DNA from: an uncultured Bacilli bacterium
GTDB lineage: Bacteria; Bacillota_I; Bacilli_A; RF39; UBA660
NCBI GenBank assembly: GCA_944372415.1
Contig: CALVZA010000002.1
Coordinates: forward strand, 8,358-72,357
Direction: 5' to 3'
Length of the DNA: 64,000 bases
The translations under genes and the position numbers were made by a program. The notes below the pieces were generated by a model, which worked only from the letters and a program-made list of their open reading frames with translations, had not been told where the DNA came from and made no database searches. Shown in pieces: positions 5,471 to 50,400 of the stretch. Position 1 is the first letter of the stretch, and every line of letters starts with the position of its first letter.

Positions 5471-5530
5471 TGAATAAAATATAAATTTTATCCTCATTAT
5501 ATTCATAAGATTTATAAGGAGGATTTTTTT

Positions 5531-7393: not shown

Positions 7394-7405
7394 GTTTTAT
7401 ATATT

Positions 7406-7433
7406 AGATATCAATTATAGTGGTATCTTTTTA
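7406..7433 (+). terminator. rho-independent terminator
   Basis: AGATATC...GGTATCT hairpin followed by TTTTT. Confidence 0.5.
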
Positions 7434-7509
7434 TATATATTTTAGTTAATAAGATTATATTATTTTCATATAATTTTCATATAAAATATGATAGAATATT
7501 GACAAGGAG

Positions 7510-27808: not shown

Positions 27809-27884
<76 letters not shown>

Positions 27885-27892
27885 ATAAAAAA

Positions 27893-27969
27893 TGGCGGTC
27901 CGTACGGGATTCGAACCCGTGATCTTCTGCGTGACAGGCAGACGTCATAGGCCTCTAGACTAACGGACC
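27893..27969 (-). tRNA. tRNA-Asp (GUC)
   Basis: GGTCCG acceptor; anticodon loop CUGUCAC; encoded CCA. Confidence 0.85.
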
Positions 27970-27972
27970 ATT

Positions 27973-28049
27973 TGGTTGCGGGAGAAGGATTTGAACCTAC
28001 GACCTCTGGGTTATGAGCCCAGCGAGCTACCGAACTGCTCCATCCCGCG
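27973..28049 (-). tRNA. initiator tRNA-fMet (CAU)
   Basis: CGCGGG acceptor; three G-C pairs in anticodon stem; loop CUCAUAA. Confidence 0.85.
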
Positions 28050-28064
28050 ATGACTAAAATTAAA

Positions 28065-28156
28065 TTGGCGGAGAAAGAGGGATTCGAACCCCCGCGCCGT
28101 TGCCGACCTCCTGGTTTTCAAGACCAGTCCCTTCAACCGGACTTGGGTATTTCTCC
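28065..28156 (-). tRNA. tRNA-Ser (UGA)
   Basis: long variable arm; anticodon loop CUUGAAA; perfect GGAGAAA acceptor. Confidence 0.85.
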
Positions 28157-28300
28157 GTTTGTTCTTCAAGGAACAAATTGATTATAGCATATAAATAAAA
28201 AAATAGTCAAGAAATTTCATAAAAAATATTACTTTTCTATAAAAAAATATTGTTTTTTTTATTGTTTTCGTTAAAAAATGAAAAAAAATTAAAAAAAGTA

Positions 28301-28329
28301 TTGATTTAAAAGAAATTTTAGGTTATACT
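28301..28329 (+). promoter_or_regulatory. sigma-A-type promoter for the plus-strand tRNA array
   Basis: TTGATT, 17-bp spacer, TATACT. Confidence 0.5.
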
Positions 28330-28367
28330 CAAATAGTCTTAATTAATTAAGACGACCGAGTGGTGTT

Positions 28368-28456
28368 GCCCAAGTGGCGGAACAGGTAGACGCACAGGAC
28401 TTAAAATCCTGCGAGATTTAACCCTCGTGCCGGTTCAAGTCCGGCCTTGGGCACCA
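28368..28456 (+). tRNA. tRNA-Leu (UAA)
   Basis: long variable arm; anticodon loop CUUAAAA; GCCCAAG/CTTGGGC acceptor. Confidence 0.85.
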
Positions 28457-28474
28457 TTTATTTGATTATCTCTC

Positions 28475-28551
28475 GGGCGATTAGCTCAGTTGGTTAAAGC
28501 ACCTGCCTTACAAGCAGGGGGCCATAGGTTCGAGTCCTATATAGCCCACCA
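28475..28551 (+). tRNA. tRNA-Val (UAC)
   Basis: anticodon loop CUUACAA; T-loop GGTTCGAGTCC; CCA. Confidence 0.85.
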
Positions 28552-28557
28552 TCTTTT

Positions 28558-28633
28558 TCCGACTTAGCGTAACTAGCAGCGCAACTGACTTGTAATCAGT
28601 AGGTTGGGGGTTCGACTCCCTCTGTCGGCACCA
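28558..28633 (+). tRNA. tRNA-Thr (UGU), atypical 1:72 position
   Basis: body nearly identical to Bacillus-type tRNA-Thr (ACTGACTTGTAATCAGTAGGTTGGGGGTTCGA), but the 5' nucleotide is T opposite C72 and pair 7:66 is T-T. Confidence 0.7.
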
Positions 28634-28641
28634 CTTATTAT

Positions 28642-28725
28642 GGAGGGATAGCGAAGTGGTCAAACGCGGCAGACTGTAAATCTGTTCCTTCGGGTTCCAT
28701 GGTTCAAATCCATGTCCCTCCACCA
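28642..28725 (+). tRNA. tRNA-Tyr (GUA)
   Basis: long variable arm; anticodon loop CUGUAAA. Confidence 0.85.
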
Positions 28726-28733
28726 CTTTAGAT

Positions 28734-28809
28734 TGCCTCGTAGCCAAGTGGTAAGGCATCAGACTTTGACTCTGACATTCCGGTGGTTCGAACCCACCCG
28801 AGGCAGCCA
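28734..28809 (+). tRNA. tRNA-Gln (UUG)
   Basis: TGCCTCG acceptor; anticodon loop CUUUGAC; discriminator G. Confidence 0.85.
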
Positions 28810-28821
28810 TCTTATTTATAT

Positions 28822-28897
28822 GTCTCGTTAGCTCAGTTGGTAGAGCATTTGACTTTTAATCAAAGGGTCATGCGTTCAAGTCGCATACGAGACACCA
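28822..28897 (+). tRNA. tRNA-Lys (UUU)
   Basis: anticodon loop CUUUUAA; GTCTCG/CGAGAC acceptor. Confidence 0.85.
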
Positions 28898-29357: not shown

Positions 29358-30413
29358 ATGAAAAAGATTTTTTTAAAATATTTTATTCCAATTATTTTAT
29401 TATGTATTATAGGTATTACTACTATATATTGTTCTAAGAATATAGTTAGTAATTATTTATATTTTTTTAAAAGACAAATAATATATGTTTGTGTTGGTGT
29501 ATTTTTTTTGTTTTTATTTAAATTTATTAATTTTAATTATATAAAAAAGTATAATTTTTTATTGTATTTGTTCAGTGTATTTTTATTAATATATGTATTG
29601 TTTTTTGGTGATGTGATAAATGGTAGTAAAAGTTGGATTAATTTATTTGGAGTTAGTATACAACCTAGTGAGTTTGCTAAAATTGGTTTACTATTGTGTT
29701 TAGATAGATATATTAAAACTAAATATGGTTTTATTAAAAGTATAATATTATTATTAATTCCTAGTATTTTAACTTTTTTACAACCGGATACTGGGACTGT
29801 GCTATTTTATATAATTATATATTTTAGTATTTTTATTTCTATGGGGCTAAAGAAGAAATATTATATTGGTTTATTTAGTTTAGTTATTATATTTATTGGT
29901 GCTTTTTTCTATTTATATTTTTTTCAAAGTGAGTTATTTATTGATGTATTTGGTACAAGTTTCTTTTATAGAGTTGATAGAATAATTAATTTTATAGATA
30001 ATGAAGGATATCAAATTAATAATGCTTTGATAGGAATAGGGAATGGAAGAGTTTTTGGTAATGGTATAAAGTATGTTATTTATATACCTGAGGCTATAAC
30101 TGATTTTATGTTTGCTAATATTTTAACTATATTTGGCTTTTTTGGAGGAATATTAGTTATTGGTTTATTTGTATATTTAGATATTATTTTAATAAGAGAT
30201 ATTTATGATTTAAAAAAACATAAATTTTTTGTAATAGGTTTATTTGGGTTATTTTTATATCAACAAATTCAACATGTATTTATGGACGTAGGTTTATTGC
30301 CTATTACAGGTATAACTTTACCTTTTGTAAGTTTTGGAGGTAGTAGTTTAATATCATATTTTATTTTATTTGGAATACTTTTAAATATAAAAAAGTATCA
30401 AATTGATACTTAG
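29358..30413 (+). CDS. SEDS-family peptidoglycan glycosyltransferase (FtsW/RodA/SpoVE)
   Basis: about 10 TM; hallmark IQPSEFAKIGLLL motif. Confidence 0.85.
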   Translation: MKKIFLKYFIPIILLCIIGITTIYCSKNIVSNYLYFFKRQIIYVCVGVFFLFLFKFINFNYIKKYNFLLYLFSVFLLIYVLFFGDVINGSKSWINLFGVSIQPSEFAKIGLLLCLDRYIKTKYGFIKSIILLLIPSILTFLQPDTGTVLFYIIIYFSIFISMGLKKKYYIGLFSLVIIFIGAFFYLYFFQSELFIDVFGTSFFYRVDRIINFIDNEGYQINNALIGIGNGRVFGNGIKYVIYIPEAITDFMFANILTIFGFFGGILVIGLFVYLDIILIRDIYDLKKHKFFVIGLFGLFLYQQIQHVFMDVGLLPITGITLPFVSFGGSSLISYFILFGILLNIKKYQIDT

Positions 30414-30643
30414 TAATATCCGCCTGAAGAGTAATTGTAATATCCTCCTGGTCTATATGGTCCTGGATATGGTTGATATGGGTATGGATATGGTGCTTGC
30501 ATTGGTGGATTAACATAAACTGGTCTAGGACGTGATACTCCAACTAAACCTGCTCCTGCTAGACCTCCTAAAAGAAATGGTACAAAAAATCTGTCATCAT
30601 TTTTTTGATAAATATTATTATAATACATAAAAACTCCTTTCAT
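30410..30643 (-). CDS. small Gly/Tyr/Pro-rich protein with one TM
   Basis: FFVPFLLGGLAGAGLVGV TM then PYPYPYQPYPGPYRPGGYYNYSSGGYY; convergent with the SEDS gene and overlapping its stop. Confidence 0.4.
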   Translation of the reverse strand: MKGVFMYYNNIYQKNDDRFFVPFLLGGLAGAGLVGVSRPRPVYVNPPMQAPYPYPYQPYPGPYRPGGYYNYSSGGYY

Positions 30644-30671: not shown

Positions 30672-31508
30672 CTAATAGGCGTATAACCTATATAAATTAA
30701 TACTTGGTTTAGAATTAAATCTAATATTTAGTATAGATGTACCAATACCGTTCGATATGAATATTTCTTTGTTGTCTAAATTATAATATTCATCGTAATA
30801 TGTTTTTGAGCCGACTGGAGTGTATATTGCACCTATAAATGGTATTCTTACTTGTCCATTATGTGAATGTCCTGATAGTAGTATATTAAAGTTATATTCT
30901 TTAATTTTATTATATTCGTCTGGTTCGTGAGTAAGTATAAATCTATAATATTTATTTTCTTTTTTTAATATATCATAATTTACTTTTGTTTCACTTGCAT
31001 CTGATAATCCTACTAATGATATAGGGTTATTCTCTTTATAGTATATAAGTTTTTCTTCATTATCTAATATTGTGAAGTTATCATCCATTATTTTTTTAAA
31101 AGTTTCTAAATTTTTTATATCATGATTTCCTGTTACAGCAAAATTTCCTAAAGTTGAATTAATAGTTTTTAAAATATTTTTTATTTCCTCTATTTCTTTA
31201 TTATTTAATTCTTTTCTTTTATCTATTAAATCTCCTGTAAATACTACTATATCGGGATTTTGTTTATTTATTAAGCTAACTATTTTTTTTAAATATTTAA
31301 TATTTACAGTGGTTCCATAGTGTATATCAGAAAAGTGTACTATTTTTAATCCGTCAAAAGAATCTGGTAGTTGTTTATTTTCTATTTTATATTCTTTAAT
31401 TGTTAAATTATAAGGTTCGATATATTTTGCATATATAAATATCATTGCAATAATAAGGATAAAGTATATTAATATATGATGTTTTTTGTTTTGTTTTTTA
31501 TTAGCCAT
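30672..31508 (-). CDS. membrane-anchored calcineurin-like metallophosphoesterase
   Basis: HFSDIHYG, GDLID, GNHD, HSH motifs. Confidence 0.8.
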   Translation of the reverse strand: MANKKQNKKHHILIYFILIIAMIFIYAKYIEPYNLTIKEYKIENKQLPDSFDGLKIVHFSDIHYGTTVNIKYLKKIVSLINKQNPDIVVFTGDLIDKRKELNNKEIEEIKNILKTINSTLGNFAVTGNHDIKNLETFKKIMDDNFTILDNEEKLIYYKENNPISLVGLSDASETKVNYDILKKENKYYRFILTHEPDEYNKIKEYNFNILLSGHSHNGQVRIPFIGAIYTPVGSKTYYDEYYNLDNKEIFISNGIGTSILNIRFNSKPSINLYRLYAY

Positions 31509-31518
31509 GTTTCCTCCT

Positions 31519-32151
31519 TTAAAATAATAAAATTATTAATAATGTTATTGTATTATTTAATGAATGAGCGATTATGTTTGATAATATGTTATTAGTTTTT
31601 AAATAAATTGTACTAAATGTTAATCCTAGTATAAAATATGGAATTATGTATATTAATTCGATTAATCTATTTGAAGATACTACGTGTAGTAATGCAAATG
31701 TAATTGATGATAATATTAAAAATAAGTGTTTGTTTTTAATATTTTTTTTAAATTCTAATCTAAATGTTATTTCTTCTAATATAGGTATAATGGTAGTAAG
31801 TAATATTGAATAAATTATTTTGTTATTAAGTAAAAATTCTCTATTATTTAATTCGTTATTAGATATACCATTAGGTATAATTATATAATTAATAATATAA
31901 TTACATAATATCATTAATGAAAATCCTATAAAGAAATATATTAATATTGTTTTTAAGTATTTTAATTTAAAATCTTTTAAGTATGTTAAAATTTCTTTTT
32001 TATATTTTATTATGAAATATAGTAATATTATTAGATATGAAATTAATAAGTAAAGGCTATAATATTTGTTATTTATATCTCTAGTAAATAGTGATATAAG
32101 TATTGTGGGTAAAAAAATATAAATTAAAATATTAATAAATCCTTTTTTCAT
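31519..32151 (-). CDS. CPBP-family intramembrane metalloprotease (CAAX/Abi-like)
   Basis: EEITFRLEF and FALLH...HSLNN motifs. Confidence 0.7.
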   Translation of the reverse strand: MKKGFINILIYIFLPTILISLFTRDINNKYYSLYLLISYLIILLYFIIKYKKEILTYLKDFKLKYLKTILIYFFIGFSLMILCNYIINYIIIPNGISNNELNNREFLLNNKIIYSILLTTIIPILEEITFRLEFKKNIKNKHLFLILSSITFALLHVVSSNRLIELIYIIPYFILGLTFSTIYLKTNNILSNIIAHSLNNTITLLIILLF

Positions 32152-32184
32152 AGTTTCACCTTAATTAATATTATCACATTTTTA

Positions 32185-32213
32185 TTGGATTTTAAATATT
32201 AATATGTTATAAT
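32185..32213 (+). promoter_or_regulatory. sigma-A-type promoter of the Tad-like operon
   Basis: TTGGAT, 17-bp spacer, TATAAT, then RBS AAGGGTGG and ATG 32239. Confidence 0.5.
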
Positions 32214-32238
32214 CATTTTAAGATAAGGGTGGTAGTTA

Positions 32239-32970
32239 ATGAATAGAGTAGTTAATTATTTAGTGTATTTATTTCTGTTTTTCTTTATATTAGTATCAAG
32301 TGTTAATGCGGAATGTTCTTATCAAGAAAGAAAGAATCTACTTAATGAGGCTAAAAGTGTTGATATTGTTTTTAATGTTGATAGTAGAAAAGAAAAAATA
32401 GAAACTGTTAATCCTAATACAGAAGAAATAGAGATTATTGAGGATGATAAATTTTATTTTAATTTAAATATATCAAATTTAACAAATGATTTATTTATTA
32501 AAGTTACTAATAATTTGAATAGTGATCAGTTTATTGTGAATAGTGAAGATTTAAAAGATGGTTTATATTCTTATGAAATAGATAATATGACTGATATAAT
32601 AACTTATCATTTAGATTTTTATTCTACTTATAATAATTGCTATGCAGAAAAGATTTTATCTAGACAAATAAAAAAACCAAAAGAAAATCCAGTATATTAT
32701 TTTTCTGTTTGCTCTGATGAAAGATTAGAAAATAATAAATATTGTCAAAGATTTATTGAAAATGATTTTAATATGAAAACTTATGATATTGTTTCAAAAT
32801 TAAATAAAATACTTGAAGAAGAAAATGAACCAGTTGTTGAAAAAAATTTTTCAGCAAAGAAAGTAAAACAGTTTTTTGCTAAATATTGGTATTTATTTGT
32901 TGTTACTTTAATAGTAATAATAGGAGTAATAACACTGTTAATTATTAGAAAGAAGAGAAGTAAATTATGA
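32239..32970 (+). CDS. exported membrane-anchored protein, first gene of the Tad-like operon
   Basis: signal peptide ending VNA|E; 4 Cys; C-terminal TM plus RKKRSKL tail; stop overlaps the start of the next gene (ATGA). Confidence 0.5.
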   Translation: MNRVVNYLVYLFLFFFILVSSVNAECSYQERKNLLNEAKSVDIVFNVDSRKEKIETVNPNTEEIEIIEDDKFYFNLNISNLTNDLFIKVTNNLNSDQFIVNSEDLKDGLYSYEIDNMTDIITYHLDFYSTYNNCYAEKILSRQIKKPKENPVYYFSVCSDERLENNKYCQRFIENDFNMKTYDIVSKLNKILEEENEPVVEKNFSAKKVKQFFAKYWYLFVVTLIVIIGVITLLIIRKKRSKL

Positions 32971-35900
32971 TTAAGTTAAAATTAAAATATTTTTTATTTT
33001 TATATATACTTTTCTTTCCTATGTTGCAGGTTAATGCTGGAGTATGTAATGGATATGATATAGATAATTCTTCTGGCACATGTAAATCCATTAGTGTTTC
33101 TGTATGGACACCTGATTGGTTAAACAAACGATATGGTAGTTATTTTTTAAGACCTGGATATGTTGCAAGTACTACTAATGGAGATGCAGTTGCGTTTTGT
33201 TTAGATCCTGGGTTGCCTAGATCTACTAAAGAATTAACTTATATAAGGGAAATTGATAATTCTGATACTTCTGGCGGCGAAGGGACAGTTGGTTATTATG
33301 ATGATGGTGTTTATCGTATGTATCAATATTTTTATAATAATTTACTATGGAATTTGAATAATGGTGGCTTATCTGATGATAATATGAATCAGGAACGTGC
33401 ATATTTTCAAAATGCATTAAGAGTTTGGACTTATAAAAATAAATTTGATTATTTGGCTCCTAATAGTGCTAAGTATGAGATAGATGCACCACATTTTAAA
33501 ACTTGTGCTCATTATATTGATAGTACAGTTTCTAGTGGTACGTCTCAGTCAATTGCAGATTGTTATGGAAATAATACTCATCTTAATAACATACAAAAAT
33601 ATTATGATAGCATGGCACAAAATTATTTGTGGGTAAATCCTTTAAATATTGAAACAAAATCATCTAGAGTTACTGGACAAGATAATAAAAAATATTATAG
33701 GTATGAATTTAATATTACTTTTAATAATGGTAGTACAAAATTTTTTGATGATACATATTCTCAAGGAATATCTTATAGAGATATACAAATAGGAAATGCA
33801 GAATTTTATTTAGATGATTTATCAGTTAACGGCGTGAGTTGTAGTTCTTCTTCTAAATGTTATAATTATAGTGGAAATGGTATTGTAAATACAGGAGATA
33901 GCAGACAATTTATAGTTGAATTATCTGAAGAACAGTATAACGAATTTAAAAATAGTTCTGAAGATGGAACTGTAAATGTTACAATGCATTATGGATATCA
34001 ACATCCAATGAATATAGAAAATCTTTATACTGCTAGGTATGATTTAACAAATTCTTATCAGCGTATGTTGATTATTAGAAATTATATTCATAAAGATAGT
34101 ATTACAATAGGAAAAACTCCTGAAATTTCTAAGTGTTTACATAATTCAAGTGGTTATATTAATTCTCAAGGTAATAAAGTTAGTACTTTAGCAGAATTTA
34201 TGGCATCTTGTGGTTGTAATTCTGTTAACCGAGATTTATTAGATTCTAACGGACTTGAATATTATAATAATAAATGTTCTAATTCTATAATAGAAGAAAG
34301 TTATACTGGTTCTGTAAATAATTGCGACGATAATGAAGAATATGATCCTGCTAATTCTGATACAAATTTTAGTAATTATTCTTTAGGTTATAAGAAGGTT
34401 TCTAGAATAAATGATTATTGTACAGAAACTTGTAATGAAGATATAACTATTAATGATTTAAAAGGTAAGTATACTACTGTTGCTGGAACTTATTTTGAAT
34501 TTAAAAAATATCCTAGTTTGATTGCTAATAAAAAATGTGTAGTTGATATTGATTATAATAAATGGATTACTAATTATAGAAATAATTTACAGGATTTAGT
34601 TAATAAATATAATGATTGGCAAGAGGCTAAAATGGCTTATGAATCAGAAGATTCTTCAGATAAATGTAATCCTAGGTGTTGTGGTGGGTATGTTGATGGT
34701 GTTTGTACTAGATGGTGTTACGATACGTTATATAAATATAATTATACATATGAAAAAGTTTATATAGTAAATAATACAGATTTAGATACAGAAACTGTAC
34801 GTGGTGATGAAACTAGATGTGGTTCTAGAATAAATTGGAATGTAAATTCCAAACTGTCTGCTTTTAGAAATGCTTCTTCAAGTTCAACTTCTATTGCTAA
34901 CTTGAAAAGTGATTTAAAAACATGTAATAATAGATTATTTGGAAGTAAAAACAATATTACTGATGAAAATTTTTATGATTTTAAACAGCAGTTAAATTAT
35001 TATTATTATCAAACTTATTCTGATAAAAACATTGGTACAAGAAAAAATAACGAAAGGTCAAGTTATGGTGGTATAAATGATAGTGAATTTAAAGTTAGTA
35101 GTCAGATAAATTCTGAAAAAACTGGAGAAGGGTCATATAAGAATTATGCTTCTTTATCGGAATCTGGTATTAGCAGGGAATCAATTTATACATATGGTAA
35201 TTCGTATAGTAGAACAGTGGAATATGATGTGAAATATAATAGACCTAAATATGAAAAGTATGTTGAAGTTTCTACAGGTAAAATTTCTACTACTTATGTT
35301 GAAAATAAATCTATAAAGTTAGGATATGTTTATGATATAGATGTCTCAGCAATACCTAAATCTGATAACAAAACATATTATGCTTTTAGCAAATTAGGAG
35401 CAAGCGACAATAAAATTTTTAATCATTTTAAAGATGGTGATGAAATAAAAAGATATTGTACATATGAAATAACTAATGATATAATAGGATGTGAAGATGG
35501 TAATTGTGATGATGAAGGTTCAAAATTAAAAGTTGTGTTTAGAATTGTTGATCCTAATAATATAGATCCTAATAGTAGATTTGGTACCGGTGAAGGATTT
35601 AAGAATTGGGATAATGATAAAGGAAAGGCTACAAAAGCTAAAATAGAAAATGATGATACATATAATCCTAAAAATTTAGAGTATTCATTTTCTTTAGATA
35701 GTGCAACTATTAAGGCAATAAGAAATTATAATTCGAATTGTGATGGAAATGAGTGTGATCCAATTGTTTATTCAGATACTAAAACTTCATACTCAGAGTT
35801 GGAATGTGATGAAAATGGTTTATATTGTAAAAGTAAGTTTATAACCACTGCTTTATCAGATAATACTATTTTTGGTAAAAAATTTGCACTTAATACAAAT

Positions 35901-35978
35901 GGTAGAAGTACATGGAAAGACTTCACTACTAATGAAGGTAAATACTATATTGATGGCGTTAAAATTGACATTGATTAG
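32967..35978 (+). CDS. 1003-aa secreted cysteine-rich protein (putative adhesin or cargo of the Tad-like system)
   Basis: signal peptide ending VNA|G; about 30 Cys, including CNPRCCGGYVDGVCTRWC; Asn/Tyr/Ser-rich; no TM, no LPXTG. Confidence 0.55.
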   Translation: MIKLKLKYFLFLYILFFPMLQVNAGVCNGYDIDNSSGTCKSISVSVWTPDWLNKRYGSYFLRPGYVASTTNGDAVAFCLDPGLPRSTKELTYIREIDNSDTSGGEGTVGYYDDGVYRMYQYFYNNLLWNLNNGGLSDDNMNQERAYFQNALRVWTYKNKFDYLAPNSAKYEIDAPHFKTCAHYIDSTVSSGTSQSIADCYGNNTHLNNIQKYYDSMAQNYLWVNPLNIETKSSRVTGQDNKKYYRYEFNITFNNGSTKFFDDTYSQGISYRDIQIGNAEFYLDDLSVNGVSCSSSSKCYNYSGNGIVNTGDSRQFIVELSEEQYNEFKNSSEDGTVNVTMHYGYQHPMNIENLYTARYDLTNSYQRMLIIRNYIHKDSITIGKTPEISKCLHNSSGYINSQGNKVSTLAEFMASCGCNSVNRDLLDSNGLEYYNNKCSNSIIEESYTGSVNNCDDNEEYDPANSDTNFSNYSLGYKKVSRINDYCTETCNEDITINDLKGKYTTVAGTYFEFKKYPSLIANKKCVVDIDYNKWITNYRNNLQDLVNKYNDWQEAKMAYESEDSSDKCNPRCCGGYVDGVCTRWCYDTLYKYNYTYEKVYIVNNTDLDTETVRGDETRCGSRINWNVNSKLSAFRNASSSSTSIANLKSDLKTCNNRLFGSKNNITDENFYDFKQQLNYYYYQTYSDKNIGTRKNNERSSYGGINDSEFKVSSQINSEKTGEGSYKNYASLSESGISRESIYTYGNSYSRTVEYDVKYNRPKYEKYVEVSTGKISTTYVENKSIKLGYVYDIDVSAIPKSDNKTYYAFSKLGASDNKIFNHFKDGDEIKRYCTYEITNDIIGCEDGNCDDEGSKLKVVFRIVDPNNIDPNSRFGTGEGFKNWDNDKGKATKAKIENDDTYNPKNLEYSFSLDSATIKAIRNYNSNCDGNECDPIVYSDTKTSYSELECDENGLYCKSKFITTALSDNTIFGKKFALNTNGRSTWKDFTTNEGKYYIDGVKIDID

Positions 35979-36002
35979 TAATCTTATGGAGGTGAAAAAG
36001 CT

Positions 36003-36404
36003 TTGAAAGAAAGTTTATGGGGGTATTGGTTAATATTATTAGGTATAATAATTATTACAGTTATGATATTATTACAAAATTATACAACGACTAATCAACA
36101 AGATTACTATTTGGCAAAAGAAGTAACTTATGCTGCAATGTATGATGCTATTGATTATGGATATTATAAAAAAAATGGTGAATTAAAAATAATAAAAGAA
36201 AAGTTTGTTGAAAATTTTATTAGGCGTTTTGCTGAGAGTGCAACACTAAATAAAAATTATAAAATTAATTTTTATTCTATATATGAAACACCACCTGCTG
36301 TTTCTATAGAGATAAAAACTAATACAGGGGAATTTTTGGTAGGAAGTGAAAGCATTGATGCTGGAATAACTACAAGATTGACTGCAATATTGGAAGTTAG
36401 ATAA
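36003..36404 (+). CDS. small N-terminally membrane-anchored protein (possible pseudopilin/TadE-like accessory)
   Basis: single N-terminal TM (WLILLGIIIITVMILL), then a beta-rich domain; no GxxxxEY prepilin motif. Confidence 0.4.
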   Translation: MKESLWGYWLILLGIIIITVMILLQNYTTTNQQDYYLAKEVTYAAMYDAIDYGYYKKNGELKIIKEKFVENFIRRFAESATLNKNYKINFYSIYETPPAVSIEIKTNTGEFLVGSESIDAGITTRLTAILEVR

Positions 36405-36421
36405 AATTAAGGAGGAATAAA

Positions 36422-37282
36422 ATGGGAAATTTAATGTTAAAATTAAAAAGATTTTTAGGAAATAAGAATACTATTACAATTCTTTGTGTAGTTGCAGGTG
36501 TAGCAGTATTGCTAATTGGTTATAATTATAGAGTTAATCAGGCAGTACAACCTGTAAATGTTCCTTATGCTTTAAAACGTATGGAACCAAAAAGTAAAGT
36601 TGAAGCAGATAATGTGGGAACAATTAAAGTAAGTGGTGCTTTTGTAGAGCAAACAGAAGACTTAATTACTAGTAAACAATATATTTTAAATAATGAATGG
36701 TATGTTAACTATGATACTGTTATTCCAGAAGGTGGTTTATTTTATAAAACACAATTGGTTTTAAAAGAAGATATACCAGATACTGCATTTGATGATATAG
36801 ATGAGGGAGCTACTATATTTAGTTTAAGTGTAGATAGTCATAGTACCTATGGTAATTCAATAATGCCAGGTAATTTTATTGATTTATATTTAAAGGCAAC
36901 TGACGAAAATGGTAAAGTTATATTTGGTAAATTTATTGAAAGTATAAAAGTATTATCAGTAAGAGATTCAAGTGGTAATGATGTTTTTGCAGACAGTCAA
37001 GTTGTTAGAAATAGTGGAGAATTATTATTTGCTGTTAAAGATGATTTATTTATGTTATTAAGTGAAGCAAGTTTTGTTGGTGGAATAGACATAGTACCAG
37101 TACCTAGAAATGCTGCTTATAGAAATGAAGGAGATACTGAAAATGGTACTCAAGTATCTAAACAAGAATTAGTTGATTATATTTTAGAAAAAGTTTCTGA
37201 ATTAAGTGATGATATAGATGTTTCTACAGCAGTTACTGGAGATAATATTTCTCAAACTCCAAATGCTCCAACTGGGAATTAG
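36422..37282 (+). CDS. cpaB: CpaB/RcpC-like Flp-pilus assembly protein
   Basis: N-terminal TM; SAF-like region; RcpC-like PGNFIDLYLKAT...IKVLSV and ELLFAVKDDLFMLLSEA patterns. Confidence 0.6.
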   Translation: MGNLMLKLKRFLGNKNTITILCVVAGVAVLLIGYNYRVNQAVQPVNVPYALKRMEPKSKVEADNVGTIKVSGAFVEQTEDLITSKQYILNNEWYVNYDTVIPEGGLFYKTQLVLKEDIPDTAFDDIDEGATIFSLSVDSHSTYGNSIMPGNFIDLYLKATDENGKVIFGKFIESIKVLSVRDSSGNDVFADSQVVRNSGELLFAVKDDLFMLLSEASFVGGIDIVPVPRNAAYRNEGDTENGTQVSKQELVDYILEKVSELSDDIDVSTAVTGDNISQTPNAPTGN

Positions 37283-37290
37283 GTGATTAG

Positions 37291-38373
37291 ATGAATGATG
37301 CTATATTTTCTCAATTAGACTTTGGTCCTTTAAAAGAATTTTTAGAGACAGACGATATAACAGATATTTCTTATAGTAATGGTGGACAGGTTTGGCTAAA
37401 ATCTTTGACTAAGGGTATTTATCAAGTTGATAGACCGGATATAAATAATGCAATGATGGAAAAATTAGCATTTCAATGTTCTAATGTAATGGGTAAAACG
37501 TTTAATATGGCTTCTCCTTTTTTGGATGCTGAGAGTGCTGAGTTAAGAATGAATTTTATTCACGAGTCTATTAGTACTAATGGTATTGCGTGTGTTATAC
37601 GTAAAACTCCCGCTAAAATTAGATTAAATAAAGATAAATTAATAAATGAAAGATATACAACGGTAGAAATACATGACTTTTTAATAAAATGTGTTGAGGG
37701 TCATTGTAATATTATTGTTTGTGGCGAAACTGGTAGTGGTAAAACAGAATTAGTTAAATATTTAGCAAGCTATACTAAAGAAAATGAAAAAATTATTACT
37801 ATTGAAGATACTTTGGAACTTCATTTAGATAAAATTTTTCCACATAGAGATATTGTTGCTGTAAAAACAAATAATATAGCAAGTTATTCTGATGTTTTGG
37901 TTTCATGTATGAGACAAAATCCTAAATGGATATTATTATCTGAAGTACGTAGTGCAGAAGCTGTATTAGCAGTACGTAATTCTATTTCTTCAGGACATAA
38001 TATATTATCTACTATACATAGTGATAAGGCTAGTAGTATTCCTTTGCGTATGTATTCTTTGATGGAAAGTAGTCAAGATCTAGAGCAATTTTTAAGTAGT
38101 ATACATAGATACGTTCAACTAGGCGTATATGTAAAAGGATATTTTAGTAAAGAATTAAATAGATTTCAAAGGGAAATATTTGAAGTTTGTGAGTTTTATG
38201 TTAACGAAAAAAATCAGCCTAAGAAAAATGTAATTTATAAAAAATTTATGAATGGTAAATTTCAAATCCAAAATCCTACTAAATATTTGTTAGATTATTT
38301 GAGTATTCAAGGTGTTAATTTGCCTGAAGATACATTTAGATTAGGTAGTGTTAATAAAGGAGAAGAAGACTAG
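37291..38373 (+). CDS. tadA: TadA/CpaF/VirB11-family secretion ATPase
   Basis: Walker A CGETGSGKTE; TIEDTLEL Asp box; LLSEVRSAEA Walker B; STIHSDKA His box. Confidence 0.8.
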   Translation: MNDAIFSQLDFGPLKEFLETDDITDISYSNGGQVWLKSLTKGIYQVDRPDINNAMMEKLAFQCSNVMGKTFNMASPFLDAESAELRMNFIHESISTNGIACVIRKTPAKIRLNKDKLINERYTTVEIHDFLIKCVEGHCNIIVCGETGSGKTELVKYLASYTKENEKIITIEDTLELHLDKIFPHRDIVAVKTNNIASYSDVLVSCMRQNPKWILLSEVRSAEAVLAVRNSISSGHNILSTIHSDKASSIPLRMYSLMESSQDLEQFLSSIHRYVQLGVYVKGYFSKELNRFQREIFEVCEFYVNEKNQPKKNVIYKKFMNGKFQIQNPTKYLLDYLSIQGVNLPEDTFRLGSVNKGEED

Positions 38374-38390
38374 AAAGGTGGTTATAATTA

Positions 38391-39287
38391 ATGATTGAAA
38401 GTATTTTAATTATAGCAATCACAATATTTGTACTTATTTCTAGATTTGGTAAAAACGATAGTGTAAGTAGTTCTGTTAAAAATGGATTTAGAAAAGTAAT
38501 GTCAAAGGTAATGCCTTATAATTATGATGATGTTAAAGAAAAAGCTAAGGAATTAGGTCAAACTTTTAATGCTAAACAATATACTTTACAATTTGTATTG
38601 TTTGCAGTAGGTGGTGGTGGTGTTGCTTTTCTATATTTTAGAAGTTTAACTTGGGCAATTATTTATGGCTTAGTTGCAACAACTTTCATTCCTTATTTAA
38701 CGGTTCTTAAGTATAAAAGAGTTTATAGTGAGTATTTATTTGAATGTATTCAGACTTACTGTACTAATGTAATTATGGAATTTAATACAACTCAGTCTTT
38801 TGTTAAATCATTAGAAGGTGTTGTTGAAAGTGGAATTTTAGAAGAACCAGTTTTAAGTGATGTTAAAAATATGATTGATATGTCATATAAAAATGGTACA
38901 ATTGATGAAAGTATTACATGGTTTAATAAAAAGTATCCTTATTATATGGTAAAAAATATGCATCAATTATTTTTACAGATAACTAATGAAGGTGCAAAAG
39001 ATAGTGGAGAAAGTTTAGAAAATATGATGTTAGATATAGATGCTTTAGTAGAAGGTGTTTATAGAGATAAAATGGATAGAAAGACATTCTATACTAAGTT
39101 TTTAACATTTGGTTTGGCTTTGTATTTATTAGTTATGTTAATACAATTTTTATTAGGTGGTGCTAACTATTTAGAAATGTTAAATGAATGGTATGTACAA
39201 ATGATTTTACATTTAATAATTATACTAAATTCGTATTTCTTATTAAAAGGAATAAAGTTCTATAATGAAGATACGGGGGTAGAATAA
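38391..39287 (+). CDS. tadB: TadB-like T2SS-F-domain inner membrane protein
   Basis: 3-4 TM layout with cytoplasmic T2SSF-like domain, immediately after the ATPase gene. Confidence 0.55.
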   Translation: MIESILIIAITIFVLISRFGKNDSVSSSVKNGFRKVMSKVMPYNYDDVKEKAKELGQTFNAKQYTLQFVLFAVGGGGVAFLYFRSLTWAIIYGLVATTFIPYLTVLKYKRVYSEYLFECIQTYCTNVIMEFNTTQSFVKSLEGVVESGILEEPVLSDVKNMIDMSYKNGTIDESITWFNKKYPYYMVKNMHQLFLQITNEGAKDSGESLENMMLDIDALVEGVYRDKMDRKTFYTKFLTFGLALYLLVMLIQFLLGGANYLEMLNEWYVQMILHLIIILNSYFLLKGIKFYNEDTGVE

Positions 39288-39288
39288 T

Positions 39289-40071
39289 ATGTTTGTAGAA
39301 GCGGTTATAATAATCATATTAATATTTATTGCGTTACAAGCAACTGGAAGTATAAGTTTAAATAAATTTGTAAAAGATAATCAGGAATATTTTAAAGCTA
39401 TGAAAGAAAGTGATTATGAATTTTTACTTAAGGCTCGTTATGGAGATGGTATAGATTCTGATAGACTTTTTACTGCTCGTATAAGAGATGGCGCTATAGC
39501 AATGGTACTATGTATATTCTTATTTATTAATAGTTTAGATTATACTAAAGTTATACTTTCTATTGTTGCTGGGTATGCTGTATTTAAATTAGGTTATTTA
39601 AAATTAAAAAATTATTATAAAGCACATTTACACGAAATTGATGCTCAGTTACCTTACTATTTAAAAAGTTTAGAAATTTTAATTCAACATTATACTGTTC
39701 CTGTTGCAATAGGTAAATCTTTAGAAGATGCTCCTCAAATATTTCAAGAGGGTTTAAAAGAGTTATTACAAAAGATAAATGCTGGAGATTCTAGTATTAC
39801 TCCATATATGGATTTTGCAAAAGATTATCCAGTTAGAGATTCTATGAGAATGATGAGATTACTTTATAGATTAGGTCTAGGTAGTCAAGAAAGAAAGCAA
39901 GAACAACTTTTACAATTTTCTAGATCTATTTCTAGTTTGCAACAAAAAGCGCGTGAAACTAGATATAAAAATAGATTAGATAAAATGGAAAGTAAAACTA
40001 TGATAATGTTGGTTTGTACTGGTGTAGGAGTTATGTTACTATTAGTTATTTCTATTATGAATATGTTTTAA
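39289..40071 (+). CDS. tadC: TadC-like T2SS-F-domain inner membrane protein
   Basis: paralogous topology to the previous gene; 2-nt intergenic gap. Confidence 0.55.
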   Translation: MFVEAVIIIILIFIALQATGSISLNKFVKDNQEYFKAMKESDYEFLLKARYGDGIDSDRLFTARIRDGAIAMVLCIFLFINSLDYTKVILSIVAGYAVFKLGYLKLKNYYKAHLHEIDAQLPYYLKSLEILIQHYTVPVAIGKSLEDAPQIFQEGLKELLQKINAGDSSITPYMDFAKDYPVRDSMRMMRLLYRLGLGSQERKQEQLLQFSRSISSLQQKARETRYKNRLDKMESKTMIMLVCTGVGVMLLLVISIMNMF

Positions 40072-40110
40072 TAAACATATTTTTTTATGTTATAATATAT
40101 CTTAGAAAGA

Positions 40111-40602
40111 GTGATTTATATGGATTTAGTATATGTTGGCAAGATAGTTAATACTCATGGAATTAAGGGAGAACTTAGAATAAAAAGTGATTTTGAAAGA
40201 AAAGATTTAATTTTTAAAGTTGGTAATAAAATTATTATAGATAAAGAAGAACATGAAATAAGAAGTTATAGGGTGCATAAAGTGTTTGATATGATAACTA
40301 TAGATAATCTTGATAATATAAATGATGTAATACGTTTTGTAGGTAAAAATGTATATGTTAGTAGAGATTCTTTAAAGTTAAAAAATAATGATTATTTATT
40401 AAGTGATTTAGTTGGATTAAGTGTAGTTTTTAACGATAAAGTATATGGTATTGTTAAAGATTATTCTTATGATATTAATCCTTTATTAAAAATAGAATTT
40501 GATAAAAATTATTATATTCCTATAAATTCTAATTATATTAAATCTGTTGATTTAGAAAATAAAATATTAGTTGTTGATGATATAGAGGGTTTGATAATAT
40601 GA
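40111..40602 (+). CDS. rimM: 16S rRNA processing protein RimM
   Basis: GKIVNTHGIKGELRI N-terminal motif; PRC barrel C-terminus. Confidence 0.85.
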   Translation: MIYMDLVYVGKIVNTHGIKGELRIKSDFERKDLIFKVGNKIIIDKEEHEIRSYRVHKVFDMITIDNLDNINDVIRFVGKNVYVSRDSLKLKNNDYLLSDLVGLSVVFNDKVYGIVKDYSYDINPLLKIEFDKNYYIPINSNYIKSVDLENKILVVDDIEGLII

Positions 40603-48699: not shown

Positions 48700-50400
48700 A
48701 CTATAATGTGTCAATAAAAAATTGAAACATTTTTGAAATATATATGAAATAGTAAATGTTGGCACGACGAAAAGACCGAACGTCGATAATTTTTTAAAAA
48801 ATTCGGTCAAAATACGAAAATTAAATTTATTCCAATTTTCTTTTGACAAGCAGAAATATTTTTAATATTTTATAGTCGTTTAAGTAATTATTATTTTCAA
48901 AAATGAAAATAATAATTACTTAACTCCAATAAGGTAAAAAATATTTCTTTACTTGTAAAAAGTTTTCTCGGCATAAAGTTAATTTTCTAATTGTTCTTTG
49001 AATTCAACATTTTCTTTAAGCATATGAAATATAACTCTAGTAAGTTTATGGGCAACGTGACAAACAACATTATTATGAGATTTACCTTGAGAAAGTTTTC
49101 TGTTATAATATCTGTTATAAGTTTCTGAATTCCAAATTATTAATCCAGAAGCTCGAAGCATTGCATAACGTAGAAGTTTAGAACCTCGTTTTGACATTTT
49201 AATGATTGTAGCATTAAAATTACCGGATTGTTTAACAGATGGATCTAAACCTTCAAATGCAAGTAATTTAGTAGGACTAGCAAATTTGCCTATGTTGCCA
49301 ATCTCACTTAAAATGATAGCGCCTAAGGTATAGGAAATACCTGGGATAGTTAAAATAACAGAGTTTAACTCATCCATTATTTCTTTGATTTTAAAATCAA
49401 TATCCTTAATTTGACTATCAAGTAATTCAATTTGTTTAAGAGAATGTTTGATTTGAATTGAAAGTGAGGAGTTGTTGACACCAATAGAAGATTTTGCTAA
49501 TTCTTTTAATTTACGGGCTTTTTCTAAGGAAAAATGACCTTTAGAAGCTTTAGATAAAAGACTAGAAATTGCATCAACCTTTGTAGAAGCAATGTCTTTT
49601 GGATTAGGATATTTAGAAAGTAAAGCATAACAACTTTTTAAATGAATAGAATTAAAAATTAAAGTTAATTCTGGAAAAAGTTGATCAACAAAACAGACTA
49701 AACGAACTTTTAATTTAGTACGATATTTAAGAACATCATCTCTATGTCTACATAAACTTCTAAGTTCTAAAATTTTTATATCTTTGGCAACAAAGGGAGT
49801 ATAATGTTTTAACATTAGTGATTGAATAATTAAATAAGTATCAATTTTATCAGTCTTTGTCTTTCTAATATTACTATTTCTCAAAGCATCAGTTTGAATG
49901 GGATTAATGATACCAATATTGAAACCATTATTATGGAGAAATTGAATTAAATTATCACCATAGTGACCAGTAGATTCCATTCCTACTAGACAATCTGAGA
50001 TATTAATATTATTTACTTTTACTTTGTCCATAAAAAAGTTGAAACCTTTAAGTGAGTTTTTAACTAAAAATGCTTCTTCAATTATTTCACCATTTGAATC
50101 TGCAATAGATGCATAATGATTTTCTTTAGCTATATCAAAACCAATATAGTACATAAAATTAACTCCAATCTAAAAAGAATTTTTGACAACTGTGTTCCAC
50201 GTGGTTTTATTTCTTGTAACCTTGTTGGAGATAAAAAGTCTAGGCCTTATCCAACTTATAACCAATTAAAAATAAAACTGTGGCATTAGTCTCAATTAGA
50301 ATAGTCTAAGCTATAAGGTGAGCAGAAAAGTCCACAGTGTCGGAACATATTATATCAGAAATTTAAAAAATAAAAGAAAGGATATAATACATTCAGTCCT
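48700..50400 (-). mobile_element. IS110-family insertion sequence (ends approximate)
   Basis: IS110 transposase ORF flanked by locally GC-richer structured ends (GACCGAA...TTCGGTC at 48766-48800; 18-bp perfect palindrome at 48889-48928; CCACGTGG/CCACAGTG region at 50190-50340). Confidence 0.55.
48979..50154 (-). CDS. IS110-family transposase (DEDD type)
   Basis: N-terminal YIGFDIAKENHYASI DEDD_Tnp_IS110 domain and C-terminal Transposase_20 domain (GIGYTLGAIILSEIG). Confidence 0.85.
   Translation of the reverse strand: MYYIGFDIAKENHYASIADSNGEIIEEAFLVKNSLKGFNFFMDKVKVNNINISDCLVGMESTGHYGDNLIQFLHNNGFNIGIINPIQTDALRNSNIRKTKTDKIDTYLIIQSLMLKHYTPFVAKDIKILELRSLCRHRDDVLKYRTKLKVRLVCFVDQLFPELTLIFNSIHLKSCYALLSKYPNPKDIASTKVDAISSLLSKASKGHFSLEKARKLKELAKSSIGVNNSSLSIQIKHSLKQIELLDSQIKDIDFKIKEIMDELNSVILTIPGISYTLGAIILSEIGNIGKFASPTKLLAFEGLDPSVKQSGNFNATIIKMSKRGSKLLRYAMLRASGLIIWNSETYNRYYNRKLSQGKSHNNVVCHVAHKLTRVIFHMLKENVEFKEQLEN

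Follow-up and report, generated by a model that had tools for sequence, protein, structure and literature searches.

A giant cysteine-rich exported protein with a predicted thioester-domain head, encoded with a CpaF-type ATPase in an uncultured Bacilli lineage

In the 64-kb stretch of DNA analysed here (the window), the gene of a giant cysteine-rich exported protein is the second of a tightly packed seven-gene operon, with intergenic gaps of 2-25 nt and an overlap (ATGA) between the stop codon of the upstream partner gene and the start codon of the giant. The initial annotation had regarded the giant as a stand-alone secreted protein with one partner, a view that this arrangement replaces. No terminator-like site was found inside the seven-gene operon, a scan for promoters and terminators being uninformative in such AT-rich DNA. 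The features are as follows:

32239..32970, + strand: partner protein, 243 aa, with a signal peptide (cleavage between VNA and EC), a C-terminal transmembrane (TM) helix and an RKKR tail
32967..35978, + strand: giant Cys-rich exported protein, 1003 aa, 29 Cys
32967..33038, + strand: Sec signal peptide of the giant, residues 1-24, cleavage between VNA and G (24/25)
33039..34112, + strand: head of the giant, residues 25-382, predicted thioester domain (TED) fold with an inserted beta-sandwich (about residues 227-360), class II-like topology, 7 Cys
33198..33200, + strand: codon of C78 (A-F-C-L-D-P), proposed thioester-forming Cys, [YFL]C-Phi-zeta motif
[quoted passage not shown]
34113..35975, + strand: conserved C-terminal module of the giant, residues 383-1003, which defines the family, 22 Cys
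36003..36404, + strand: DUF5411 protein, 133 aa (Pfam PF17424, E 6e-56)
36422..37282, + strand: bitopic protein with weak RcpC/CpaB similarity, 286 aa (Pfam RcpC, E 3.6e-5)
37291..38373, + strand: secretion ATPase of the CpaF/VirB11/FlaI clade, 360 aa (Pfam T2SSE, E 8e-28)
38391..39287, + strand: polytopic membrane protein at the TadB position, 298 aa, of no known family
39289..40071, + strand: polytopic membrane protein at the TadC position, 260 aa, of no known family

The reading frame and signal peptide of the giant had been correctly recognised, as had the lack of any further TM segment, LPXTG motif or internal repeat. The only hydrophobic stretch is N-terminal, the maximal 19-residue Kyte-Doolittle mean past residue 30 being 0.54; neither an LPXTG-like motif ([LIVN]PX[TSA]G) nor a hydrophobic C-terminal segment was found, and self-BLAST returned no internal repeat. 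The A-G-V-C junction at the cleavage site is invariant (alignment A1), and export of the giant by Sec is strongly supported. The giant has no match in Pfam, NCBIfam or PHROGs, and the full-length profile (A1) has no true relative among PDB sequences. The motifs initially pointed out all lie at the residues given, namely FCLD (77-80), FQNALRVW (147-154), CTETC (485), CNPRCCGGYVDGVCTRWC (567-584), CDGNECD (925) and CDENGLYC (947), and the partner likewise proved to carry four Cys and the same signal-peptidase site, here VNA followed by E. Regarding the claim of some 30 Cys, an even number, the abundance stands (2.9% vs. 1.2% for window ORFs of at least 150 aa) but not the parity, as the count is 29, i.e., odd, with every Cys in the mature protein. 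This excess is a family trait and not a matter of chance, since 157/157 relatives carry 1.6-4.4% Cys.

In an independent metagenome assembly (locus L010), the same 7.8-kb operon is found with an identical giant gene and 2 nt differences, both in the partner gene. Throughout loci L001-L010, the order partner-giant-DUF5411 is kept (duplicated in L002, L006 and L007), with a partner directly upstream of a giant in every locus, and in every locus examined the last giant gene is immediately followed by that of DUF5411. Eight loci extend far enough to include the machine genes, namely L001, L002, L003, L004 (cut off by the contig end inside the last gene), L006, L007, L008 and L010; in all of them this trio is followed by the ATPase and both membrane-protein genes, a linkage that holds in relatives down to 23% giant identity. 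That the giant is inherited together with its membrane-anchored partner, DUF5411 and the CpaF-type ATPase machine is strongly supported. Between the window and L001, identity reaches 96% for the ATPase, 91% and 95% for the membrane proteins and 92% for DUF5411, vs. 79% and 81% for the housekeeping RimM and TrmD, and 58% and 50% for the giant and partner, respectively; conservation of the machine genes thus exceeds that of housekeeping genes while the putative adhesin cassettes diverge fast, as would be expected of a colonisation factor facing the host or neighbouring cells. A mobile element was considered and rejected, tblastn against plasmids and phages returning no match and the chromosomal site, rodA-rimM, being fixed in all relatives.

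These loci bear on the possibility that the giant just neighbours the ATPase genes, being a structural protein of the wall or spore envelope, or one of an S-layer-like kind, that needs only Sec for its export and stays attached non-covalently. Cys-rich proteins of Firmicutes are typically components of the spore coat or exosporium, and in L009 the trio adjoins spoVS with no ATPase nearby. Nonetheless, the translational coupling and tight packing of the operon, together with the ATPase and membrane-protein genes that come after the trio in the eight sufficiently long loci, make this explanation very improbable; coat proteins assembled by the mother cell would not be expected to carry a signal peptide either, and no SLH, LysM, GW or WxL domain was found in the giant (Pfam).

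Within the family, the C-terminal module stays constant while the heads are swapped for Gly/Ser-rich, TM-anchored, NlpC/P60-, dockerin- or InlB-repeat-containing N-termini. Near-invariant positions among 142 sequences are C485, C489, C524, C653, C831, C947, C954, G507, P868, N880-W881 and I918. Structure prediction gave a TED fold for the head. The 620-residue module, modelled with a pLDDT of 86.1, has no known structural relative; together with the two membrane proteins of the operon, it represents confidently defined families without known relatives.

An even bias in Cys number is an accepted signature of disulfide-bonded exoproteins, and the parity method applied here follows that work (PMC2823432). 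The mature Cys count is odd in 65/76 members with the Cys motif and even in 43/61 without it (Fisher p 2e-11); in the full-length TED-headed members (n = 55), 50 have an odd number of Cys in the head (p 2e-10) and 53 an even number outside it (p 9e-14). The Cys of the family are also gained and lost in pairs: among 64 heads, C27 and C39 are both present in 52, both absent in 8 and discordant in 4, the corresponding figures for C180 and C199 being 22, 38 and 4, and in the C-terminal module C489/C524 and C947/C954 co-occur with phi 1.0 and C485/C653 with phi 0.69. For the C-terminal 620 residues, a conserved module locked by disulfides is strongly supported. From such sequence patterns, the head pairs would be C27-C39, C180-C199 and C292-C298, leaving C78 unpaired, and the other 28 Cys of the giant would form 14 disulfides. 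Tight clusters such as CNPRCCGGYVDGVC resemble metal-binding knots, and the Cys might conceivably bind metals or Fe-S clusters instead; this appears highly improbable, as these clusters sit in the most variable stretch of the alignment, the conserved Cys are scattered singly along beta strands, and even parity with pairwise gain and loss is predicted by disulfides, not by metal sites. An intermolecular disulfide between the giant and its partner is unlikely because the Cys of the latter (26, 134, 158 and 169), all invariant (alignment A5), are four, an even number. The thiol-disulfide oxidoreductase proposed as a check in the initial annotation was sought by a motif scan for CxxC thioredoxin/DsbA-like proteins, which found none in the 64-kb window, too small a stretch to conclude to absence. 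The host is probably an anaerobe, which, like the negative scan, counts against the disulfide-rich adhesin favoured below.

Based on one predicted structure and short motifs, the assignment of the head (25-382) to the fold of Gram-positive thioester domains is strongly supported. With TED motifs defined as [YFL]C-Phi-zeta and Phi-Q-zeta-Phi-Phi (PMC6194298), the loose likeness to thioester motifs that was mentioned, but not claimed, initially stands as regards FCLD, where C78 fits and is conserved, but not as regards FQNALRVW, where Q148 varies between N, D, E and Q among the 64 heads and was rejected as the bonding Gln because it is not conserved; Q365, which follows the sandwich insert on predicted beta strand 364-370, is proposed in its place. 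FQNALRVW lies on predicted helix 137-158, where the TQxxPhiW motif is degenerate, with W154 in 23/64 heads and R152, not W154, as the conserved residue; this motif is not required for thioester formation (PMC6194298). Counted among 64 cluster representatives with a TED-type head, with the sequences covering each column as denominators, C78 is conserved in 62/62, D80 in 62/62, Q365 in 61/61 and R152 in 61/63, and in 18 diverse heads (alignment A3) the invariant columns are C78, D80, P84, D112, R152 and Q365. A Cys-His-Asn catalytic triad C78/H346/N352 was discarded, H346 being replaced in 14/64 sequences. The giant and the 18 diverse heads have no match with Pfam TED (PF08341) or solved TED chains in the PDB (E <=10), nor has the head profile (A3) any true relative among PDB sequences; a distant family member (P0113) scores 21.8 bits with Pfam TED vs. 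a cut-off of 22, the match beginning at its YCLDP motif.

C78 and Q365 would form an internal Cys-Gln thioester, to which parity, pointing to one unpaired Cys in each TED-type head, lends indirect support and against which stands their spacing of 287 residues, above the 171-204 of known class II TEDs (PMC6194298). Alternatively, the head may be TED-like without a thioester, C78 acting in catalysis or redox chemistry (as the nucleophile of a protease or of a transglutaminase-like enzyme) or being engaged in an intermolecular disulfide, e.g., of a homodimer. Consistent with this are the lack of a Pfam TED match, the degenerate helix motif and the conserved polar residues nearby (D80, D112, R152 and N352 near-invariant, H346 in 50/64), and parity shows no more than that one Cys is unpaired within the chain, a Cys that could have another role than the thioester; we consider this alternative quite unlikely.

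The nearest TEDs are those of class II, from the TIE adhesins EfmTIE86 (6fwy), BaTIE (6fwv) and SaTIE (6fx6), with no detectable sequence homology to the head of the giant, which differs by a sandwich insert of about 135 residues vs. about 75, by the degenerate TQxxPhiW and by three extra putative disulfides. TIE adhesins further exhibit a CnaB/CnaA stalk with isopeptide or ester bonds and a sorting signal (an LPXTG motif followed by a TM helix and a positive tail), whereas the giant has neither, and no sortase, its stalk or anchor being the 620-aa disulfide-rich module of no known fold. Closer in setting is TIEpLS20 (p34) of the Bacillus subtilis plasmid pLS20, a class II TED adhesin that has a signal peptide but lacks a sorting signal. 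Its gene, like that of the giant, belongs to the operon of an ATPase-driven envelope machine, and its retention on the cell is unexplained (PMC8092201). However, TIEpLS20 has a CnaB-type stalk and is plasmid-borne, serving a conjugative type IV secretion system (T4SS), whereas the giant locus is chromosomal, beside rimM and trmD, contains no relaxase or VirB4/VirD4 gene and matches nothing in collections of plasmids or phages. In Streptococcus pyogenes, sortase polymerises the thioester tip adhesin Cpa (Spy0125) onto covalent pilin fibres, whereas any filament at this locus would be of the type IV kind, no pilin being found in the operon. Neither the large Cys-rich TED protein nor its partner had been described before.

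Downstream of the giant, the DUF5411 protein has an invariant N-terminus (M1, E3, W6, G7, Y8, W9 and G14; alignment A8), one hydrophobic helix and then a small alpha/beta domain, with no true relative of its profile (A8) among PDB sequences. The 286-aa CpaB-like protein stays below cut-off for RcpC (24.1 bits vs. 28.8) and TIGR03177 (E 5e-5, 22.6 vs. 71) and has no match in PDB sequences. The ATPase matches VirB11 and TadA in NCBIfam, and among solved structures CpaF comes nearest (E 4e-19), almost tied with VirB11 (E 2e-18). The 298-aa membrane protein is strongly conserved and very widespread (>7,200 cluster representatives), with no T2SSF among the 120 matches listed of >7,200; neither it nor the 260-aa protein matches Pfam, NCBIfam or PDB (profiles A6 and A7), and profile-profile comparison (A6 vs. 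A7) found no mutual homology (probability 0.4%). With Tad (type IVc) systems, the operon shares the CpaF-type ATPase, and it has a protein weakly similar to CpaB/RcpC and two membrane proteins at the TadB/TadC position, but it lacks the Flp pilin, TadV, TadE/F/G, TadZ and the T2SSF signature; among ORFs of at least 25 aa in 31400-40200, no Flp or other pilin and no prepilin peptidase (TadV) was found. Such missing parts, which define Tad and type IV pili, count against the type-IV-filament-like machine proposed below. A canonical Tad locus as in Bulleidia extructa (PMC12786226) was rejected because TadV, pilins and TadE/F/G are all missing. The sole pilin-like gene of the window is an orphan N_methyl pilin (59741-60175). 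DUF5411 operons of Clostridia were flagged as an uncharacterised secretion-related system by Miller, Stern and Burstein 2022 (PMC9523054); DUF5411, a CpaF-type ATPase and membrane proteins are common to both sets, while the InlB-repeat protein of their operons is absent from the window and present in the sister locus L006.

Such an operon could also serve release, the giant being a substrate of a machine akin to type II secretion (T2SS), i.e., exported by Sec, folded and oxidised outside, then pushed through the wall and let go by an ATPase-driven pseudopilus (perhaps of DUF5411), so that the TED head would work at a distance or the giant would be a released matrix or aggregation factor. The Sec signal with no anchor of any kind, the size and folded, disulfide-rich nature of the cargo, reminiscent of Gram-negative T2SS, the T2SSE superfamily of the ATPase and the label of putative secretion system given to DUF5411 operons (PMC9523054) agree with this scenario. 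On the other hand, a conserved 620-aa module under unrelated heads resembles a docking or anchoring module more than a secretion signal, a dedicated membrane-anchored partner is duplicated along with each giant, and TED heads are known only from cell-attached adhesins (PMC6194298, PMC8092201). We hold this scenario to be unlikely, and infer surface display rather than release.

Most likely, the giant serves an uncultured, very AT-rich lineage of gut Bacilli as a surface adhesin, and the initial interpretation as a whole is partly supported. In the reading we favour, with a probability of roughly 0.55, it is a thioester-headed, disulfide-stiffened adhesin whose C-terminal module is the handle for an ATPase machine and whose cassettes are exchangeable. 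The C78-Q365 thioester would react with a ligand of the host or a neighbouring cell, the nucleophile usually being the amine of a Lys, resulting in covalent attachment, while the 14 disulfides would stand in for the isopeptide and ester cross-links stiffening classical TIE adhesins. By way of its handle, the folded giant would be carried through the wall by DUF5411 and the ATPase-driven, type-IV-filament-like machine, which would also keep it on the surface like a tip adhesin on a short (pseudo)pilus, retention by the machine replacing sortase/LPXTG anchoring. The rapidly diverging giant-partner pairs would be exchangeable adhesin cassettes on a constant machine, some genomes duplicating them with different heads.

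The PilY1/PilC tip adhesins of type IV pili are Sec-exported non-pilin proteins of about 1000 aa, encoded with small N-terminally anchored proteins; their N-terminal binding domain is variable, whereas their C-terminal domain is conserved and docks on the filament machinery. The giant may be likened to them by analogy only. More tentatively, and with some doubt on our part, the operon may constitute an undescribed Gram-positive display system, where a highly conserved, pilin-less CpaF-type machine (the ATPase, the CpaB-like protein and the two membrane proteins), with DUF5411 as adaptor or pseudopilin, brings across the wall and retains there Sec-exported, oxidatively folded thioester adhesins made of a variable head and a C-terminal module, the latter a new fold with about 11 disulfides, independently of sortase.

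Through TEDs, bacteria can bond covalently to host molecules; the carriers known so far are sortase-anchored proteins and sortase pili, apart from a single unexplained case on a conjugative plasmid. The TED head of the giant is also a possible source of new covalent protein-ligation tags. The giant family contradicts the rule of Cys-free exported proteins in Firmicutes: the parity statistics indicate some 14 disulfides per molecule family-wide, which implies a dedicated oxidative-folding capacity and suggests that disulfides may replace the isopeptide/ester cross-links of classical adhesin stalks. Should the operon be such a display system, an unrecognised extracytoplasmic oxidation pathway would exist in an anaerobic Firmicute lineage. 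If true, the adhesin reading would provide a second, widespread route of TED deployment, coupled to a type-IV-filament-like ATPase machine, in abundant uncultured gut Bacilli.

The open reading frame 32967..35978 (+) encodes a Cys-rich exported protein of 1003 aa (the giant), in which a head (residues 25-382) precedes a C-terminal module (C-module, residues 383-1003). Much of what the initial annotation had read in this protein was found again, namely (i) a typical Sec signal peptide ending at VNA|G, (ii) the lack of a transmembrane (TM) segment, the top 19-residue Kyte-Doolittle mean past the first 30 residues being 0.54, (iii) no LPXTG-like motif, (iv) no detectable internal repeats, and (v) every quoted Cys-cluster or other motif; the 243-aa protein encoded upstream (the partner) likewise has the VNA|E site and four Cys ascribed to it. 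Export of the giant via Sec is strongly supported. Its Cys content, previously put at about 30 and even, is indeed high (2.9% vs 1.2% in window ORFs of at least 150 aa), but the exact figure is 29, hence odd, since all 29 Cys sit in the mature protein. As the same 7.8-kb operon is present in an independent metagenome contig (L010) with two nucleotide differences, none of which is within the giant, the ORF is not an assembly artefact.

The giant gene is the second of seven tightly packed genes on the + strand:

32239-32970, +, partner, 243 aa, with a signal peptide, four invariant Cys, a C-terminal TM helix and an RKKR tail
32967-35978, +, giant
36003-36404, +, DUF5411 protein (PF17424, E 6e-56)
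36422-37282, +, bitopic protein with RcpC/CpaB similarity below threshold (CpaB-like protein)
37291-38373, +, T2SSE-superfamily ATPase
38391-39287, +, polytopic membrane protein, 298 aa, without family match
Last gene of the seven, +, polytopic membrane protein, 260 aa, without family match

The partner stop codon and the giant start codon overlap (ATGA), and a scan found no terminator-like sites inside the operon, which is flanked upstream by genes for RodA/FtsW, a metallophosphoesterase and an Rce1-like protease, and downstream by rimM and trmD. A small gene upstream (30410-30643, -) encodes 77 aa, comprising a single TM helix and then a tail rich in Pro, Tyr, and Gly (PYPYPYQPYPGPYRPGGYYNYSSGGYY), and a gene of 67-79 aa occupies the same rodA-metallophosphoesterase interval in the related loci L003, L004, L006, L007, and L008. 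Further upstream lies a cluster of ten tRNA genes (27809-28897), i.e., four on the - strand (Phe, Asp, Met, Ser) and then six on the + strand (Leu, Val, Thr, Tyr, Gln, Lys). With the ~24% G+C of the source genome, a GC skew that is strongly positive across all 2-kb bins (from 0.07 to 0.51, mostly 0.3-0.5) and nearly all genes on the + strand, the window would fit a leading-strand segment from a small genome of very high A+T content; at the GC-skew dip, a 391-aa ORF starting with MYYIGFDIAKENHY lies on the - strand (48979-50154) and presumably resembles an IS110-family transposase.

No sequence match links the head to the thioester domains (TEDs) of Gram-positive adhesins, either in Pfam or among PDB TED chains, with the exception of a distant family member (P0113), which scores 21.8 bits against the Pfam TED cut-off of 22 in an alignment starting exactly at its YCLDP motif. 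TEDs (cf. FNE, SfbI, SaTIE, and PnTIE) exhibit three motifs, namely one around the Cys ([YFL]C-Phi-zeta), a weak one around the bonding Gln, located on a strand (Phi-Q-zeta-Phi-Phi), and a separate, non-essential helix motif (TQxxPhiW), with no residues universal apart from the bonding Cys and Gln (PMC6194298). The loose resemblance of FCLD and FQNALRVW to the Cys and Gln motifs, pointed out earlier but not claimed, is upheld for the former, F77-C78-L-D agreeing with the Cys motif, but not for the latter, which sits on a predicted helix (137-158) as the counterpart of TQxxPhiW and whose Gln was rejected as the bonding residue because this position varies between N, D, E, and Q. The candidate for that role is Q365, within Y364-Q365-R-M-L, on a predicted strand that follows an inserted beta-sandwich of ~135 residues (227-360); in class II TEDs the Gln strand returns via the N-terminal lobe, and the modelled head shows the same arrangement. 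Among 64 heads, C78 is conserved in 62/62 and Q365 in 61/61 sequences covering those columns, mirroring the TED rule, while C78, D80, P84, D112, R152, and Q365 are invariant in 18 diverse heads. A TED fold of the head with both signature residues invariant is strongly supported, the assignment depending on predicted structures; a TED-like fold whose free Cys serves another role is a smaller rival.

A word-indexed search for the giant retrieved only 14 relatives (37-59% identity), all unnamed and metagenomic, and a profile search run exhaustively over 1.84 billion representatives retrieved 326 (E up to 1e-3), 167 of them with E up to 1e-10, with no name on any family cluster. Evident fragments aside, the relatives measure 900-1630 aa and all are Cys-rich (1.6-4.4%). 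What they have in common, as delimited with a local HMM, is the C-terminal 620 residues (383-1003 in the window protein), which are C-terminal in every member, while the N-terminal 380 residues are exchangeable: the window-type head occurs in 64 representatives, other heads are Gly/Ser-rich or N-terminally TM-anchored, and NlpC/P60, dockerin, or InlB-repeat domains are single cases. The C-module is, on strong support, a new conserved module, whose invariant stretch at 859-958 includes P868, N880-W881, I918, and C947-C954.

Cys exclusion is normal in Firmicutes, as had been asserted for their exported proteins, and an even Cys bias is an accepted mark of disulfide-bonded exoproteins (PMC2823432). 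If all Cys but the thioester one were disulfide-bonded, odd counts would be expected in TED-headed members and even counts in the others. Of the 76 members with the Cys motif, 65 have an odd mature Cys count, and of the 61 without it, 43 have an even one (Fisher p 2e-11), several of the exceptions reflecting crude signal-peptide trimming or motif variants. When 55 full-length TED-headed proteins were cut at the domain border, the head was odd in 50/55 (p 2e-10) and the remainder even in 53/55 (p 9e-14). Besides, Cys are gained or lost in pairs, i.e., C27/C39 (both in 52, neither in 8, discordant in 4) and C180/C199 (22, 38, and 4, respectively), and C489/C524 and C947/C954 co-occur with a phi of 1.0, C485/C653 with 0.69. 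Applied to the window giant, parity would assign the 7 Cys of the head to three disulfides and the unpaired C78, and the 22 Cys of the C-module to eleven disulfides. These sequence patterns strongly support a single unpaired Cys in the head and pervasive pairing elsewhere; metal binding by the Cys is a smaller rival, and no oxidoreductase was found within the 64-kb window.

In 10/10 related loci examined (L001-L010), every giant has a partner of ~240 aa upstream, and DUF5411 is encoded downstream of the last giant; pairs or whole partner-giant-DUF5411 trios are duplicated in L002, L006, and L007, and in the second giant of L006 (P0050) a Gly/Ser-rich N-terminus replaces the TED-type head. Genes for the ATPase and the two membrane proteins lie downstream in the eight loci long enough to show them, L004 ending within the last gene, the exception being L009, where the trio adjoins spoVS without these genes. 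Genetic coupling of the giant with its partner and DUF5411, usually extending to the CpaF-type ATPase machine, is strongly supported by this gene order, to which the giant as a mere gene neighbour of the machine is a smaller rival. Between the window and L001, identity reaches 96% for the ATPase, 91% and 95% for the membrane proteins (37291-40071 vs 5507-8281 for these three), 92% for DUF5411, and 91% for the CpaB-like protein, as against 79% and 81% for the housekeeping RimM and TrmD, which suggests unusually strong constraint on, or recent transfer of, the machine; the giant (58%) and partner (50%) diverge fast and jointly, as expected of an exposed, interacting pair. Individual loci carry further genes: in L006 (16931-19503), a 597-aa InlB B-repeat protein (Flg_new_2) and a sortase are encoded between the operon and rimM, and in L008 (5565-9257), the interval from the Rce1-like gene to the trio contains three WXG100 genes and one gene each for a C39-type peptidase and a LysM protein. 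The DUF5411 domain of L008 lies within a larger protein of 346 aa. The only mention of DUF5411 in the literature is a 2022 study flagging DUF5411/CpaF operons of Clostridia as an uncharacterised secretion-related system (PMC9523054); the L006 InlB B-repeat protein recalls the "InlB-like" protein reported with such operons.

The closest solved structures to the ATPase are CpaF (E 4e-19), VirB11 (E 2e-18), and FlaI (E 1e-16). The machine resembles a Tad/type-IV-filament system but lacks several of its hallmarks: the T2SSF signature is absent from both membrane proteins, neither a Flp pilin nor a prepilin peptidase ORF was found in the operon, and kinship to pili is weak. No homology was detectable between the two membrane proteins. 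The 298-aa one is a member of a very large family without a name, counting >7,200 cluster representatives (E up to 1e-3) that are called at most "hypothetical protein [Bacilli bacterium]"; nearly all of the 120 best are 297-304 aa long, and none of these 120 carries a Pfam domain. Elsewhere in the window, an orphan type IV pilin gene (59741-60175, +, 144 aa) shows a classical prepilin motif, MKKMNNKG|FTLVELLAVIVVLALL (Pfam N_methyl, E 3.5e-8); the genes next to it code for a DNA glycosylase of the OGG type and a restriction endonuclease, and so no pilus machinery lies beside it. This pilin might supply the filament subunit that the 32-40 kb operon lacks, or be part of a competence system elsewhere in the genome. 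A restriction endonuclease gene of the MvaI/BcnI family (60444-61181, Pfam E 5e-36) is among the few on the - strand.

The main rival to display of the giant is its release by a T2SS-like route. In the favoured reading, a thioester between C78 and Q365 would mediate covalent adhesion, the C-module would act as a handle for DUF5411 and the machine to mount or export the giant, replacing sortase anchoring, and giant-partner pairs would be exchangeable adhesin cassettes. A precedent is TIEpLS20, a class II TED adhesin without LPXTG that is encoded in a secretion-machine operon and whose attachment is unexplained (PMC8092201). The giant is probably a TED adhesin carried on a poorly understood, perhaps new, type-IV-filament-like display system.
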